A DNA stretch of 64,000 nucleotides from Felis catus (taxonomy: Eukaryota): assembly GCF_018350175.1 (NCBI RefSeq), contig NC_058368.1:112470001-112534000 (forward strand). Direction: 5' to 3'. Below are positions 6,060 through 53,388 of this stretch, one piece after another. A program made the position numbers and the translations under genes. The first letter of the stretch is position 1. Each line of letters begins with the position of its first letter. The notes beneath the pieces were generated by a model. It was not told where the DNA came from. It saw only the letters and a list, made by a program, of their open reading frames with translations, and did not search any database.

Positions 6060-6870
6060 CATTAGCAGGGGACCCTGCCATGTGGAGGGTGAACTGGAGG
6101 GTGCTAAGACCAAGCAGGGAGCCCAGCTGGCTGCTGTCACGGAGTCTAGGTGAAAGGTGATGGAGTCAGGATGTTTGGGGACCAGGTTGCAGTGACAATG
6201 ATAAGTGATGGAATTAAAGATTTATTTTACAAAGTAAAATCATTAGGACTTGTTCATTAATGGCTTGAATGGGGGGCGGGGGGGGGATGACGAAGACCAA
6301 AAGATAGCATCCAAGTGGGTAGTGCTGCCATTTCCTGATGGGAAGGAGCGAGGAACATGTTTGGGTGGGTAGAGGGAGGGAATCAAGTGTCTGAGTTAAT
6401 CAAATTTGAAATGTCAGAGATATATCAGGTAAGCAATTGGATATTAAAATGTGAAGGTCAGAAAAAACCTGGGCTTGAGATCTGCGTTTGGAAATCATCT
6501 GCAGCCTGGGAATTTAATGCCTGGGGGTTGAGTAAGGTTACAGGGGGAGGGAAGAGGGCTGGATAGTCGCAGAAAAGATGGGAGAGCCATGGGGCCTTCA
6601 ATCCTTGGGAGTCCAGAGAACAAGAGTCCGCAGAGGAGACCAGGAAAGACAGGCCAGGAAGGCAGGTGGGAAAAGGGGACCAGTGGTGTCAGGAGGCTTA
6701 GAGCAGCAAGTGTGGCTGAAGTTGGTGGGACAGAATAAGGTTGGGAAAGGGAACTGACATTTGCACTTAGCCTGAGGGTACCTCAGCTGGAGAGAAAAGC
6801 TCTTAACCCAGTGAGAGGAGAAAAGAATTGAAGGCTAAGAAAATGGAGACAGAGGTGCTTTGCCAAGAAG
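6060..6870 (-). mobile_element. Old L2 LINE remnant
   Basis: Purine-rich degraded tract resembling antisense L2; boundaries approximate. Confidence 0.5.
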
Positions 6871-8376
6871 GGGCGGGGGGTGGAGGGGGGCGGGGAAGTG
6901 GGGGGGTGTTGTCAGGAGAGGACATGGGTTAGAAGGAACCTCTTTGTTGGTGTAGGTCCTAGTTTTGTTTTTGGAGGGTTGGACCATGCTAAGGCCAGTT
7001 TGTAGGACCATGGGAAGAACCCAGTAGAGGGGGAGAGGTCGGTGATGTGGGAGGAGGTTAGGGGAATCTGGGTCGATTGTGATGGACCCATGCTCCTTTT
7101 TCTGCGCCGGGAAGGTTCCTCCCAGATGCTGTGCTTGCTCGTGGGCTGGGGCTGCTTGCTGCTCGCTGCTCCCTGCTCCCAGTCCCCTTTCAGGATCTCG
7201 TGCCTATCCGGTAGGGAGCACAGGGGGTGCACCCGGGACCTCTGCCTCCCCGCCCCCCACCACAGTGTCGGAGGAAGGGGAGGCAAGCCCCTGGAGGCGG
7301 GGTGCAGAGGCAACAGGGCTGAGCGGGTGCAGCCAGGAGGCAGAACAGGGCGCCTGCAAAGACTCGGAAACATGCAAAGACTTAGAAGTGTGCTTGCACA
7401 ATGCATGTAGCCTGTCCAGAGTTAAGGGGGCTGGATAGCAGGCAGGACCGCTGGTCGCCTGTCCCGGAAGGGCTGCAGTGTTGAGACCAGGGCTCAGAAC
7501 TGTAGCCCAAGAGCACAATCATGTCAGGATCCCCTGCCCCACGCACAGTCTCAGCCTCCTGGGGCTTGTAGGGATTTTGTGGGGAACCAAGGGTCACCCC
7601 CCACCCCAACTGGACCTCTCCGCAGGGAATTTGGGCTGCGAGTATCTAACGCCCTCAAATGTGCCTTAACTCAATCTAACCTTGAAAGGGCTGGATGCCC
7701 TGGGTACAGCAGGGGTCAAAGATGCTGCCCTCCTCATGCAGTTTATATTCTAGAAAGACCCCTCACATTAAACAAAATCCCATAAAATGTCTAGGATTTG
7801 GGCAAGCGTTATGAGGAAACCAGTAAGGTACCGGGGTGGGGGGTGTAGATAAAAGGAGAGATTGCCTTTTGATTGGGAGGGAGGCATGTGTAGGGACGGC
7901 CCGTGTAAGACAGCAACAGGCTGCCACAGGAGGATTCTAGGACTTAAAAGCAAAATCTGGGGTAAGATAGGAGGGGGAGGTCTCAGCTGTGGTTGAGCCA
8001 GCAGGTCCTTGGGGAGCTTGGTATATACGAACAAAATAGTCTGGAAGGGTAAAATAACAATAAATGGCAGTAATTGTTATTAAAGTTCCGGAGGCTCTCT
8101 AAAACTTGAAATGAAATCCATGATCCATACTACACAGTTTTGATCTTGCCCCTTGACTCTCTTGTCTGGCATTTACCGCCCCCCCCCCTTCCCCCGCCTC
8201 GCCCCGTTGCAGGTATCTGACTGGTCAGCCTGTCATACAGAACTAGTCTGACTCTGGGCCCAGAAGTGACCCTTTTCATAATCTCCTTCAGGCTATCAAA
8301 GCTACACCAAAATATATTATCAACAGATAAGTAATGGGGCAAAATGAAGACTGAAAGAACATAATCTAAAATTCTC

Positions 8377-8411
8377 AAAAAGGAATTAATACAGAGAATT
8401 TGAGAACAAAA
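8377..8411 (-). terminator. Pol III terminators of the vault RNA (primary T4, back-up T5)
   Basis: TTTT at 8408-8411 directly after the terminal stem; TTTTT at 8377-8381 downstream. Confidence 0.8.
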
Positions 8412-8506
8412 GGGTCAGAAAGCACCCGCGGGTCTCGAACCCCAACGAGAGGGTTGGAAGGTTAAGTAACCACACGCGAAGTAACCGCTTGAGCTAAAGC
8501 CGACCC
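8408..8506 (-). ncRNA. VTRNA2-1: Vault RNA, orthologue of human vtRNA2-1 / nc886 (RNA Pol III, 99 nt)
   Basis: Minus strand reads GGGTCGGCTTTAGCTCAAGCGGTTACTTCGCGTGTGGTTACTTAACCTTCCAACCCTCTCGTTGGGGTTCGAGACCCGCGGGTGCTTTCTGACCCTTTT. Box A TAGCTCAAGCGG (8485-8496), box B GGTTCGAGACC (8431-8441), vault hallmark GTTCGAGACCCGCGGG, 7-bp terminal stem GGGUCGG/CUGACCC, TTTT terminator. Opposite strand to and upstream of SMAD5, as in human. Confidence 0.96.
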
Positions 8507-8590
8507 AAGCGCCAGGCTGCAATTTCAACCTCTCAACTGCAGTGGTGTGGAGTGACGTCTAGGGGCAGGGCTGCATTTCTCCACGCCCCC
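8507..8590 (-). promoter_or_regulatory. Upstream promoter elements of the vault RNA gene
   Basis: CRE-like TGACGTCT at 8553-8560 (-47 to -54), Sp/KLF box CCACGCCCCC at 8581-8590, AT-rich TTGAAATT around -15 to -22; vault RNA genes are known to use upstream CRE-like and TATA-like elements. Confidence 0.65.
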
Positions 8591-46357: not shown

Positions 46358-47228
46358 TGGAAAAAATCCTTTCAAATGTTGAATAAAATCACTTTAGTGT
46401 ATTCTCTGGTTCACACAGAACCTTAGCTCTGTAACGTGAAGTTTATTTGGGAAACTTTGTGTGATGATTTTTTTCTCTCTCGGAATTTTGCACACTGTTT
46501 CTTCGAGATCTCATGCTTCTCGGCACTTTTCTCCACTTAGCTCTGCCTCCTGCACCGTTTCCAGTATGAAGGCTTGGGGGTGGGGCTAGTCTGTCCGTTG
46601 AAGAACATACAGAACTTGGAGAGGAAGCTTTATCATTTCCAGGACACTGTCCAGAGGAGTCACTCAAACTCAGGCATTTCTTCCTCTGAGGTCCACTTGC
46701 CATGACTGTCGGAGGAAGTGAGTGTCTCGGAGGTGGCTATGAGGTGGGACCCTTCGCATCTCTGTGGTCACTCACTGATCCTTTTATGCCGAGTGACTCC
46801 TCGAAACACCATCACGTTCTTCCAATTCTAGTGGGTGTGCGTTGGGCATTTAGGGAGAATCTTCTGAGCTGTAGCAAAGCATGGAAATGACATATTTATT
46901 AAGGATATTGGCACCAAAATCAGTTGGCCTCAATTACCCTTCAGTTAAAAATTAAAAATAGGGAAACACTGAATTAATGATTCCAGTTCTTCATGTTCCA
47001 TATGTGGTCCCCTATTTCCTGAAAATTACTTCCTTTTTGGTTCTGGAAAATTCAAGGTGGGAGTAGGTCATGAACTAAACATTCTGGCTGATCCTTTTCA
47101 CCTAATGAATAATTAAAGCAATTATTTTTATTTATTTATTAGAAAAATTCAAGCAAAGGGCCCATTTTCTCCCTAAACATCAACCCCAATTAAAGAAAAC
47201 CTATCTGGGGCTTAAAACAATACATACA

Positions 47229-48253: not shown

Positions 48254-50119
48254 ATCCATTCCTTCTTCTATGGTATCATCTCTTCCCACTTCAGACCTAA
48301 GCTGAGCTCACATAGCAACTTGGAGAGGTTGGAGTCTGGTTGCTGTGATCAGTAGGTGTGTACATGGTTCAGGAAACACAACTGTTGGCTTTAAGATTAC
48401 AAATGTGAGCATTAAAAGGAATCCTGCAATCACAAATTGTTCCTTATATAATGTGCAGTGACTGTAAGATGGCCAACAGTTTGGGGGAGGATTTTACTAG
48501 CTGTTTGAAGTGAGGAATGGCTCTAGTGTACAAAATGTTTAAACCAAATTGTTATGTCTTACAATGTTCAACAAAACACTCTGCAAACATCAGTTCTGAG
48601 GGAAAAAAAAGGCACCCTCCAAGGCAGGGTTATAGGCACTTCTGGGAGTTGTAAAGCCATGCAGGCTCCAGAAATATGTGCCTTCCAAGGGCTGGAAAGT
48701 TCTGAATTGCCAACAAATAATCAGTGAGTGTGACAAAGAGTTAAAGTACACAGACGTTACTTTCACAAAATTTATGGTGTAGTAAAGAGGTTTAAGATGT
48801 AGACCCGAGACTGCAAACCAATGGTCAATAGGACTAAATCAGGACCATGGATTTGTTTTGCTTGGCTTGGAGAGAATTGGCCTCCAGCGTGTCTAAGAAA
48901 GGGAGAAGAAGTGAGAAAGAATGAGAGAAGTGGCTAAGCTTTTAGATAACAGAGATTTTTTTTTTTTTGCATTAAAATCCAGATTTCCAACTGTTTTTGA
49001 AAAATCCGACGATCTGCCAACACTGGCCCTTATTCTGTTTCCCTACAGTGGTGGTCGGCTGGAGTGGAACAGCAGCTGTCCCTTTGATCAGAACAGGCAC
49101 TCTCTGGGTCCCCACCCTGGCCCACTACACTTCCTCACCAGGCCTCTGTCCCATTCGAGATTGGCCACCCCTTATGCAGAGACTTCGGCAACATTTACTT
49201 TGTCTTCTCACCGTGGAAACAAACTGCTGGGGCCCTGAGCAAAATAGCAGCTGCTCATTTGTGTGAGATGATGCTGGCTCAGGCCACAGAGGTGATAATA
49301 GAGGCAGTGAGAAATGGTCAGATTTGGCATATGTTTTGAAGGTAAAGTCAATAAGATTTCATGATGGATTGGATTAGGCTATGAGGGAGAGGATTTGGAA
49401 AGGACTCCAATTTTGATTTTTACTTAGATTAATTTCTTTAAAAAGTAAACCTATGGTGGAGTATTGGAAAACCAGTATTGATCTCTTAAAATAAGAACAT
49501 TTAAAAGTCTTTCTTCACTAGTACTCTTCCACATGGGTGCCCTAGGTAGTGCCATCATCATAGTCTGGTAAATGCTGCCGCTTTGGGGAATTTTGAGGGA
49601 AAGAACAATGAGAAGAGCCCCAATGACTAAGAGACTTAGATTCTTGTCCCAGGAGGCGGATTGGAGAGATGCCAGCCTACTGGTGACCTCTGTGCACCTC
49701 ACTGGCCTCACCTGTCCAGAAGGGCGTGTGTATCCCGAACTACTGGGGTTGATCTCCCAACATGGACGGTCCTACTTCCGGGAACTCCAAGTTCAGGCAC
49801 TCAAAAGGGGTTGGGAAAGTAGAGGCTCCAAGATTTCCAAATGGGAGCTGTTTCAGGGCTGCCTTGAGTAAGAAACTGTTCTCAAGTTTGTTTTGAAGCT
49901 AGTTTTCATAGAAAGATCTAAGTGAAGAGGACTCTCTTCACCTAGATTTATATAGTTACTTTAAAAATCAATGAAAGCAGCAAACTTGTGTCGGAAGATC
50001 TTTTTTTTTTTTTTTTTTTTTAACAGTTTTTGCAGTTGAGAAAATCCGCAATTGTCCCTATCGAGGGCAATAGTTTTATTTTGTTATCTTCTGGGCTGCT
50101 TTGGTGAGTGGAGACTACT

Positions 50120-50970
50120 AGTGGCCGTTGTGGTGGTGGGAGCTGACCGACTCCCACTCGGGGGCTGGCCATTGCCGCGAGAGCCTCCGGCGGATCGGAA
50201 GCTGGACTTGGCCGCGCGGAGCCAGGCGCGGAGGCTTCCTTCCCTCGGGCACCGCAGCGGTCATTCGACCCCTGACGCGCATGCGCAGACCCCAGCGGCG
50301 TCCTCCCCGGCTCCTTCCCTCCCTCATCCGGGTCCTGGGCGAGCGGGCGCCGTGCGCGTGTCTCGCGGCCGAGCTGCTAATAAAGTTGCACTGAGGCAAA
50401 GCGCAGCGACGGCGCCGGGGGAGTGCGTCCAGCCGGCGGGTGAGTGAGTGTGGGGCCCAGGGCGGGCGAGCGGGCGAGCCGGGCCGGGGGCTGCAGCTTC
50501 TTCCGCGACGCAGCTCGCCCTCAGGCCCGAGTGGCTGGACTCCGGCCGAGGTGGGGGCGCTGGGCCGCGGGCGGAACGGAAACCGCCCGGGCCTGCGGGG
50601 CGGGAGAGGTAGGCCGACTCCCGGCCTGCAGAGGTTCGGGCGGCCGGGGATGGGGCGGCCCGTCCCGCTGCGGAGGCCGTGCAGCGGCCGGGGGCGTCCC
50701 GTGGCTGGCCTTGTTCCTGCGCCGCCGTAGCCGCCCGGACTGTGGAGGGAGGCGCTCGGGACGCCCTCGAGGCGGAGGAGGAGCGGTGGGGGCGGGGGGG
50801 GGGGGGAATCCCGGCGCTGCTTGTGTCCAGAGGAGCGGTTTGTTCTACCTCATCTAAGCACCACCCTCAGTCACACCCCTGGTAGGATCGCCGTGCTCGG
50901 TCGAGCCGTCCGGTCTGCTTGCTACACTGCAAAGCTGTCCAATGGCTTGGTGAATCCGTGCCGCCGTCGC
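50120..50970. promoter_or_regulatory. SMAD5: CpG island / SMAD5 promoter
   Basis: Very GC- and CpG-dense, TATA-less; perfect NRF1 palindrome GCGCATGCGC at 50277-50286; ETS-like CGGAAG near 50196. Confidence 0.93.
50326..50443 (+). other. SMAD5: SMAD5 non-coding exon 1 (5' UTR); TSS approximate, donor after 50439 or 50443
   Basis: ATCCGGGTCCTGGGCGAGCGGGCGCCGTGCGCGTGTC..GCGGCCGAGCTGCTAATAAAGTTGCA matches the start of human SMAD5 mRNA as I recall it; followed by GTGAGT donor(s); synteny with VTRNA2-1 supports the call independently. Confidence 0.88.
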
Positions 50971-53388
50971 TTTGTGTTTCAAAGATAAGGATCCACGCTT
51001 ATCGGTGGGAATTACACTCTGGGCACTTGCGACCTGCTACTGCACTCAGCTGGTAGTTAGACCTGGTTTCTGCCCGTTGCCGTGCCAGTTTTCACCATTG
51101 CAAAGATTCCTTCCCCTTCGTGTTAACTTCTGCACTGCTGCAAGGAGAACGCCAAGCCGTGCCTCTTTGCACATTCAGCCTCTGCCCGGTCTTTCACTTT
51201 AATATCAGTACTCAAATTCATATTCCGGGCTCTCCCCCTCCCCCGCCCGTTTTCCTCTCTTCCCCTTTCAGCTGCTCTTATTACGTGGAGTTTGGAGCCT
51301 AAGCTTTGAAAACTCCCATGTGGCGCCTGTCTTAAGTTGGAGCATGCTCAGTAGCCAAAACAGATTTTGGTTGCAAAAAAGAACTGGGGCGAGGATAGTC
51401 CGGGTATTTGGACGTTTGCCCGATTCCTAACAAAATGTTCCAATTCTGGTTTTGACGGCATTGGAGAATGGAGCTGTAGGCCAGCCTGGAGGTGAGGAAT
51501 GCCTGAACACCCTGGGCCAGATCGCTATCTTGATTGCAGAGACATTGTTTCCTGACCAGCTGGAGGTCTAAGAGTTGTTGGGGTGGTGGGGGGGCGAGGG
51601 GGGGGGGACATTCCTGGCTGCTTGTGCGTTTAAATGGGTGTGGTGCTAAGTATATCTTGTTTACCTTATCTTTCTGTGGAAAAAGTTTTGAAGTCTGGTT
51701 GGGTTTGTCACATCATGCCTGTTGCCTAGCACTGCCTAAAGTGCTCTTATCTAGCAACAGGCTGGGTAGGTGGAGGTCGTGGCTTGGCCTCACAGAAGTT
51801 GAGAGTAAAGGATGCTTGGGTTGTTGTTTTAAAAATTATTTAAGTTCTTTTTAAACAGAGCGCTTGAATTTCCTTAAGAGGACCCGAATTGCCCGGAGCG
51901 AGTTAGTTTTCAATTTTAATTGAAAGGAGTTCTAAGATTTCTGCAAGGTGTCAATGTGGAAGTGGCCGTTGTAGGCAAAACAGTTCTTAGACACAGTGTG
52001 ACAGTTTGGTATTGATCAGGATACTGTTGTGAAATTAGTGTGTTCCAGAGTCAGTAAGTAAGGGATTATTTTACAGATTTGTACAACTTTCTTTTTTTTC
52101 TTTTACTCCTTCTTTGGTAACTATTTTTTCCCTCTGTGGGGAACCCCAAGATGACAAGAATGCACACGTCATAAGAGACAATTTACCAAAATATAACCTT
52201 CACAAAAGTGGTGCATAATACGTTTTAGAGTTTTAAATTTTAATTTTTGTTTTGTTTGTTTGTAGATCTATATTCCCTCTCTATTGCAGATCCCTTGGTC
52301 AGTGTGCCTTTCTTTTTCACCTGGGTGTTTTTATCGCATGAATGTTACCCTGTATCTTTGTTACAAAATTTCATTCATTATTTATCCTTCCATTCCTTTC
52401 AGGTTTGAAATAGCTGAGATCGGCAGCAAAAGTTAGGTGAACATTCTCAACTGACTTTCCTCTTAGATTTTAAATGCATCCATATGATACGGTGTGGTAA
52501 AAAGGAAAGTCAGCAGTGGACTGAAAAAAGAATAAAATATTTTTGTAGAATACGTGCAGATTTGCTGGTATTATCTACTCGTCTGGTTCACCTCGGTAGG
52601 CGCCACAGAAATGGGTAGATTGATATGTGCTGCATTTCTTTCCCCTCTGGCAAAGTCAGCTATTAATTTCAGTGGGAGACAGTGGCAGAATGTTGTTACT
52701 AATGAGGTTTGAATCAGATGTTGTTTACTGTTAGTTATGTAACATGTTGCTGGAAGTATTATTAAAAGTTGCCTTCTGTAGCAAGGTAGAGGCAAGTAAA
52801 TTCTGCTTACTCTTCACTGAGTTTTAATTCTTGGCTGAACCTGAAGGCACATTACACTATAACCATAATTATACCTGGGCAGCCTGTCTGTTTCCTGTTT
52901 TCATCATGAACCCAAACATTATGATTTGCAGTGATGATCTTTTTTGTCCTTTGCGTTAAACAGAGGCAATATGTTTTCTCTGTCTACTGAAAACAGATTT
53001 GTAACTTGGTCAAATCAAAGATACTGGATTCTCTGTTTTTGAAGACCAAACAGTAAAATACCAGTTTTTCACTTATTAGTAATGTAAATTGAAATACTAA
53101 TGCTATCTTAAAAAATCTATTTTACACATATTGTTTGATAGTGCTTTATGTAAATTTTAATGTTACCAGTAGTTTGTAGAGTGTGTGAATTAAGAAAGCC
53201 CTTTTTGTTTATGACTTATCAGTGTTTATTATTACCAGATGTATATGTTGGTTTAGGCAGTGAGCCACACATTTGGATAAATTTCAGAGTCTGCTTGAGT
53301 GTACTTTAGGATATAGCTGCCTTTATTCCTTTGGTTTATCATTTTTGCCTGTTCTCTTTACTTCTGGAGGATCTGTGTTCATTTCTCT

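Follow-up and report, generated by a model that had tools for sequence, protein, structure and literature searches.

The review literature places VTRNA1 in the interval from ZMAT2 to the protocadherin cluster and describes VTRNA2 as adjoining SMAD5. Reviews that cite Stadler et al. (2009) state that this second vault locus, VTRNA2, is syntenically conserved across mammals. According to a review, all of the expressed human vault paralogues have a proximal CRE-like element upstream. The human vtRNA2-1 gene is described as having a CRE but no TATA box, PSE, or DSE, and as lying within a CpG island (PMC8287541). The sequence of the human locus is printed in the supplement of PMC8926257.

The product of human VTRNA2-1, nc886, has repeatedly been stated to exist only in primates, the guinea pig, and some squirrels. 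In the survey of Kostiniuk et al. (2022), a species was nc886-positive when its sequence was at least 80% identical to the human one and the 5p, 3p, and loop parts were intact. The methods of that survey state that the loop structure of nc886 mediates PKR binding. The cat is not named in the main text of the survey or in three of its supplement files.

Tailless retropseudogenes are described as truncated at defined internal single-stranded positions, and their sources include tRNAs, 5S, U2, 7SK, and other RNAs (Noll et al., 2015, PMC5322556). For vault RNA, the sole published retrocopy that turned up is a human one with a poly(A) region, in the RetroSeeker paper (PMC11727581). A literature search found no paper that holds both tailless retropseudogenes and vault RNA. 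A search on vault RNA and feline returned no paper that, by its title, is about cat vault RNA.

Vault RNA gene and its anatomy

The window, the whole stretch of 64,000 nucleotides that was analyzed, corresponds to C1:112,470,001-112,534,000 of the cat genome. The gene described here lies at C1:112,478,408-506, and window positions are used for it below. With a probability of roughly 0.87, positions 8408-8506 on the minus strand are an intact and functional Pol III vault RNA gene of the VTRNA2 locus and the positional orthologue of human VTRNA2-1/nc886. The parts of the gene are as follows, from its 5' to its 3' end.

8408..8506, minus strand: vault RNA gene of 99 nt, T4 run included (RF00006; all 18 retrocopies begin at the base for 8506)
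8500..8506, minus strand: 5' side of the terminal stem (7 bp in the MFE structure; paired in the model alignment)
8485..8496, minus strand: box A, gene nt 11-22; one A more than in the Rfam consensus and model
8431..8441, minus strand: box B, gene nt 66-76 (sequence and RF00006 alignment)
8412..8418, minus strand: 3' half of the terminal stem (MFE structure; model alignment)
8408..8411, minus strand: T4 Pol III terminator (sequence and RF00006 alignment)

Scanned with Rfam 15 at its gathering thresholds, the window gave five matches over its full length, one Vault and four SMAD5-AS1. The Vault model (RF00006) matched 8408-8506 on the minus strand with 82.3 bits, where the gathering score is 34, and with an E-value of 2.4e-17 for the 64,000-nt window. 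The alignment spans model positions 1-99 of 99 and contains no non-canonical pairs. When the search is referred to the whole 2.43-Gb cat genome, the E-value is 2.2e-16. A preliminary description, made from the letters of the window, had called this unit a vault RNA gene and had proposed a covariance-model search with RF00006. The search gave a clear match that exceeds the gathering score, and the full-length alignment at 82.3 bits confirms the identification. The hallmarks that had been named, which are box A, box B, paired ends, the T4 run, a CRE, and CpGs, are all present where they had been placed.

The transcript is predicted to be about 95-99 nt long. Box B fits every specified position of what we take to be the tRNA-type consensus. 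A panhandle is indicated by the 7-bp terminal stem of the MFE fold together with the intact RF00006 pairs. The fold energy itself is not distinctive (z-score -1.36; 22 of 200 shuffles fold equally well). The gene contains 8 CpGs in its 99 nt, with an observed/expected ratio of 1.05 compared to 0.32 for the whole window. In the 300 nt upstream the ratio is 0.29. An unmethylated island is not what keeps the CpGs of the gene; another cause is at work.

Genomic position and surroundings

The neighbors of the gene were located through protein domains. In a genome search, a SMAD exon (Pfam MH1) was found at C1:112,541,503-805 on the plus strand, 7.5 kb past the right end of the window. The Pfam Fasciclin domain gave 14 matches in the genome, 5 of which are at this locus. 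These are five plus-strand exon matches within C1:112,449,261-112,462,034, or 8.0-20.7 kb to the left of the window, and by their sequence they fit TGFBI, which had been expected just left of the window. The vault gene is therefore situated between TGFBI and SMAD5 and is antisense to both, as is known for the VTRNA2 locus. One further feature of the window fixes the distance to SMAD5.

50001..51200, plus strand: SMAD5 promoter CpG island (CpG scan; the sole CpG island of the window)

The Rfam matches to SMAD5-AS1, at 46.6 and 51.2-51.8 kb, flank this island and overlap its end. From the positions of the island, SMAD5-AS1, and the MH1 exon, the vault gene lies 41.5 kb from the SMAD5 promoter and is divergent from it. 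The 42 kb given in the preliminary description agrees with this.

The four SMAD5-AS1 models match the plus strand at 46618-46878 and 51225-51788, in ascending order from 1 to 4. The plus strand is SMAD5's own strand, as seen from the MH1 exon, and for an antisense RNA the minus strand would be the expected one. These models, which are without structure, may have been made from sequence in sense orientation.

The vault gene is not in a CpG island, as no surrounding 500-nt window reaches a GC content of 0.55 together with an observed/expected ratio of 0.6. About 1 kb downstream of the 3' end of the gene, at window positions 6800-7700, the GC content rises to as much as 0.63 with a CpG observed/expected ratio of 0.33-0.38. 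For CTCF, the window was scanned with what we take to be the consensus motif. No match with at most one mismatch was found in the 64 kb, where 0.67 would be expected by chance; the scan is crude and excludes a strong site only. The CpG island and the CTCF-flanked region of nc886 were accordingly not found around the cat gene.

Upstream elements and comparison with human nc886

The DNA directly upstream of the gene contains elements that can be compared with those of the human locus.

8553..8560, minus strand: CRE-like octamer, -54 to -47 (7 of 8 consensus positions, motif scan)
8568..8590, minus strand: two upstream blocks, one GC-box-like at -84 to -73 and one 9-mer at -70 to -62 (manual comparison)

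No TATA box was found by motif scan upstream of the cat vault gene. A TATA-less promoter with a CRE is a trait of VTRNA2-1, and the cat gene has it. Both upstream blocks recur 5' of human nc886 at similar spacing, as compared by eye with the sequence in the supplement of PMC8926257. The CRE half-site region is a third block that is common to the cat and human upstream DNA, and its distance from the gene is likewise nearly equal in both. Between the end of the upstream 9-mer and the gene there are 59 nt in human and 61 nt in cat.

The identities between the cat gene and human nc886 are manual counts made by eye rather than from a tool alignment. Counted in this way, the 5' arm is identical at 26 of 29 positions and the 3' arm, including the T run, at 35 of 36, which gives 61 of 65 for both arms together. 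By eye, the extra A in box A is common to cat and human as well. The shared arms, the extra A, and the upstream blocks support the orthology of both the gene and its promoter. The preliminary description had proposed an orthologue of VTRNA2-1/nc886, and this is borne out positionally by the antisense location in the TGFBI-SMAD5 interval, along with the features just named.

Unlike the arms, the central domain of the cat gene is only about one third identical to that of nc886, and the overall identity comes to about 72% (manual counts). This value would explain the absence of the cat under an 80% filter. At each of the three positions where the 5' arms of cat and human differ, the cat base is the base of the Rfam consensus.

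The cat RNA could work in the same manner as nc886, that is, as a free regulatory RNA outside of vaults, through PKR binding or miRNA-like fragments, and under the control of methylation at the locus. This is rather unlikely. The locus and its orientation are those of nc886, and the nearly identical arms (manual count), the additional A of box A, and the TATA-less promoter with a CRE would be in keeping with such a function, but only about a third of the central domain is identical, and the loop is the part said to mediate PKR binding. An overall identity of some 72% is also below the 80% of Kostiniuk et al., the 5' arm of the cat is closer to the Rfam consensus than the human 5' arm, and neither a CpG island at the gene nor, in the crude scan at up to one mismatch, a CTCF-consensus match in the window was found. 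Because the central domain is not conserved and a CpG island is lacking, the PKR-binding and imprinting biology of nc886 cannot be assumed for the cat.

Second vault locus

At least two Vault loci are present in the cat genome, as counted among the 49 candidates that were scored out of 449,812 found at first look. That there are only two is also backed by BLAST and by pattern searches with the 3' arm and the canonical 5' arm. The other Vault match is located at C1:116,565,426-116,565,515 on the plus strand. It scores 39.6 bits, above the gathering score, and has three non-canonical pairs. A zf-C2H2_jaz exon (25.9 bits) that fits ZMAT2 precedes it by 4.9 kb, and the protocadherin cluster (PCDHA) follows it, with the first Cadherin_2 exon 73.5 kb away. 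It thus occupies the VTRNA1 position. In the 60 kb around it, no further Vault match was found at an E-value of up to 1.

Both the window gene and the copy at the VTRNA1 position pass the Vault gathering score. The copy contains a single CpG (observed/expected 0.20). By eye, it has kept none of the 8 consensus CpG sites, compared to 6 of 8 in the window gene. Its MFE fold is without a terminal stem, and neither a second copy nor a retrocopy of it was found in the genome. The copy may be decaying or weakly active. It does keep TATAAT at -21 to -16, and since it also passes the gathering score, it may still work.

A search was also made for the canonical form of the 5' arm, which does not have the extra A. 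It gave one genome match, at 3 mismatches, which is as many as the reversed control gave (1), and no Rfam match with an E-value of up to 1 was found there. This match was regarded as chance. Metagenome contigs were scanned for host-derived orthologues with a 5' arm of the cat type, with 0 matches. The repeats of MVP are intact in the cat genome, at C41:18,176,448-18,180,032.

Tail-less retrocopies

The 5' part of the gene has been copied to many places in the cat genome. A BLAST search with the 99 nt returned the gene and 17 partial matches, all of which cover nt 1 to about 40-52. A 30-nt pattern taken from the 5' arm, for which as many as 3 mismatches were allowed, found 19 matches, which are the gene and 18 others, and the reversed control found 0. 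These 18 are dispersed retrocopies of the 5' part only. Neither full-length copies nor retrocopies of the 3' part were seen. Three examples are given here.

C13:149,986,258-301: retrocopy (L009)
C10:91,221,212-256: retrocopy (L010)
C16:27,607,860-905: retrocopy (L011)

All of the retrocopies (18 of 18) start at the base that matches gene nt 1, which places the 5' end of the RNA at window position 8506. The similarity to the gene ends between nt 39 and nt 46, with three retrocopies ending at 39, eight at 40, four at 42, and one each at 44, 45, and 46. In the Rfam consensus structure these end points fall within the loop, and in the centroid fold they are found around the 3' edge of the unpaired nt 32-44. 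Target site duplications (TSDs) of at least 12 nt with at most one mismatch flank 16 of the 18 retrocopies, compared to 2 of 306 control pairs made of mismatched upstream and downstream flanks. In 12 of these 16, AAA occurs within the first 8 nt of the TSD. An oligo(A) tail was not found at the 3' junctions of the retrocopies, where no run of A is longer than 4.

Judged from their sequences, the retrocopies are L1-mediated tailless retropseudogenes, and the features of that class were found in them. The class was reportedly first described by Schmitz et al. in 2004. As retrocopies are made from RNA, they show that the RNA of this gene, or of an earlier state of it, was present repeatedly in the germ line.

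The retrocopies also carry information about the state of their source. At the 31 non-CpG positions, 11 of the 18 show no differences from the gene. Gene nt 31-32 are CG, and the retrocopies have CA at these positions in 13 of 18 cases and CG in 3 of 18. One of the three that carry CG is identical to the gene at 44 of 44 positions. In the simplest reading, there was one master gene, which changed at nt 31-32 and stayed active until recently. Most of the retrocopies therefore derive from this master in an earlier state or as another allele, or possibly from a source gene that is gone from the assembly.

The flanks of the retrocopies were compared with each other, and 34 cross-matches were found among 9 of the 18 loci. 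These have 69-83% identity, match upstream to downstream flanks, and are non-collinear. A larger unit shared around the retrocopies was rejected, because the flank matches are non-collinear and were SINE-like where they were inspected (downstream of L017 and in the flanks of L013); the matches are taken to be interspersed repeats. At L017 (C11:55,322,149-55,325,192), a carnivore tRNA-derived SINE is situated a few bases past the downstream TSD of the retrocopy.

Expression

Evidence for the RNA itself was sought in an index of sequencing runs, in which 7 sampled words of the 99-nt stretch were looked up and 24 runs were listed. At least half of the 7 words were found in 20 of the 24 listed runs, from 15 studies. 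Of these 20, four are recorded as RNA (X4, X5, X13, and X14) and come from two studies (P3 and P4). In these four, the share of sampled words is 0.86-1.00, and the run sizes are 44-1887 million letters. The run X5, labelled as a feline metatranscriptome, has 44 million letters and contains the whole 99-nt stretch in the index. Two other runs, X8 and X9, are guessed to be RNA and have 4 and 7 million letters. Runs this small are far from sufficient to include one given stretch of 99 nt out of 2.4 Gb at random, and they must therefore be rich in this sequence. When the genome was searched with a 32-nt pattern from the 3' arm, the single match was the gene itself. Since the 3' arm is unique, the full word shares do not come from the partial retrocopies. 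The vault gene is apparently expressed, as is supported by the look-up in RNA runs and by the retrocopies. The preliminary description had argued for an active gene rather than a pseudogene, and the RNA-labelled runs and the 18 retrocopies of the 5' part lend this indirect support.

It is very improbable that the gene is a silent relic, meaning a well-kept copy in which transcription has ended. The flanking DNA is CpG-poor, and most of the retrocopies differ from the gene at one CpG and could date from an earlier active phase; however, three of them have the present CG state, including the one identical at 44 of 44 positions, and the full stretch occurs in RNA-labelled runs of 44-1887 million letters (index look-up). 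A relic would also have to account for the 8 CpGs retained in 99 nt, when the VTRNA1-position copy has kept 1, and for the fact that every pair of the RF00006 model is intact. A fragment of a tRNA-derived SINE, or a chance pair of box A and box B, has next to no likelihood: SINEs of carnivores that carry both boxes do occur often in the DNA flanking the related loci, but this reading is refuted by the RF00006 scores, with a full-length match at a genome-wide E of 2.2e-16, and by a 3' arm that occurs once in 2.4 Gb, and the synteny is exact.

Proposed transcription and function

Transcription of a vault RNA gene with a box A and a box B inside it follows the type-2 Pol III pathway, from which the steps proposed here are taken. 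TFIIIC would bind to box A and box B, and TFIIIB would then be placed upstream, possibly with help from the CRE-like element. Pol III would start at the G at window position 8506, which agrees with the 5' ends of the 18 retrocopies, and would terminate in the T4 run. In the resulting RNA of about 95-99 nt, the conserved 5' and 3' arms are expected to pair and form a panhandle around the variable central loop. As the retrocopies show, the 5' 40-46 nt were reverse transcribed repeatedly into the germline by the L1 machinery.

There is nearly an even chance that the cat RNA serves as the main conventional vault RNA, with a fraction that would be bound to vaults and TEP1 and an additional free pool, and does not work in the manner of primate nc886. 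This conventional role is suggested by arms that are closer to the canonical consensus than those of human nc886, by the lack of a CpG island, and by the decayed appearance of the VTRNA1-position copy. Held more tentatively is the idea that the vault loci of the cat have swapped roles compared to human. The gene at the VTRNA2 locus would then be the principal and perhaps the sole vault RNA that supplies the particle, the gene at the VTRNA1 locus would be decaying, and nc886 would descend from an ordinary vault RNA that had no CpG island.

If the swap of roles is true, the traits of nc886, which include a new central domain, a CpG island, CTCF flanks, and imprinting, would be later and lineage-specific additions. 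The stated restriction of nc886 to primates, the guinea pig, and some squirrels would come from an identity threshold and not from how old the gene is. As for the 18 retrocopies, they would amount to a dated fossil record of how the master gene was expressed in the germline and changed in sequence. Cats, and perhaps other carnivores, might show the role of the VTRNA2-locus RNA as the main vault RNA.

Comparison with known systems

Because the VTRNA2 locus is described as conserved across mammals, the kind and the locus of the cat gene are already known. The gene is recoverable by a routine Rfam scan, and what is new are details and not a new kind of thing. One such detail is a carnivore with a canonical-looking vault RNA at the position of nc886 and no CpG island. 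Others are the decayed-looking copy at the VTRNA1 position and the 18 tail-less retrocopies.

With human nc886, the cat gene shares its place in the TGFBI-SMAD5 interval, antisense to both genes, and an upstream region that has a CRE-type element and common blocks but no TATA box. It differs from nc886 in its length, which is 99 nt in cat and 101-102 nt in human, and in being without a CpG island and without a CTCF-consensus match.

The vault RNAs of the VTRNA1 type, represented by the RF00006 consensus, human vtRNA1-1, and rodent vault RNA, are similar to the cat gene in other respects. The arms of the cat gene are close to the consensus, and it likewise has a type-2 internal promoter, a T-run terminator, and a panhandle fold. 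Unlike these genes, it is found at the other locus, it does not have the TATA-type upstream architecture that is ascribed to VTRNA1, and its box A is one base longer.

The cat retrocopies differ from the tailless retropseudogenes described thus far in that their source is a vault RNA; the word "vault" is absent from the main text of PMC5322556. They are like them in being 3'-truncated at a single-stranded position, in having no oligo(A), and in being flanked by TSDs of the L1 type. Thus, the retrocopies offer evidence of germline transcription that is drawn from genomic sequence alone, and they add vault RNA to the sources of the tailless class.
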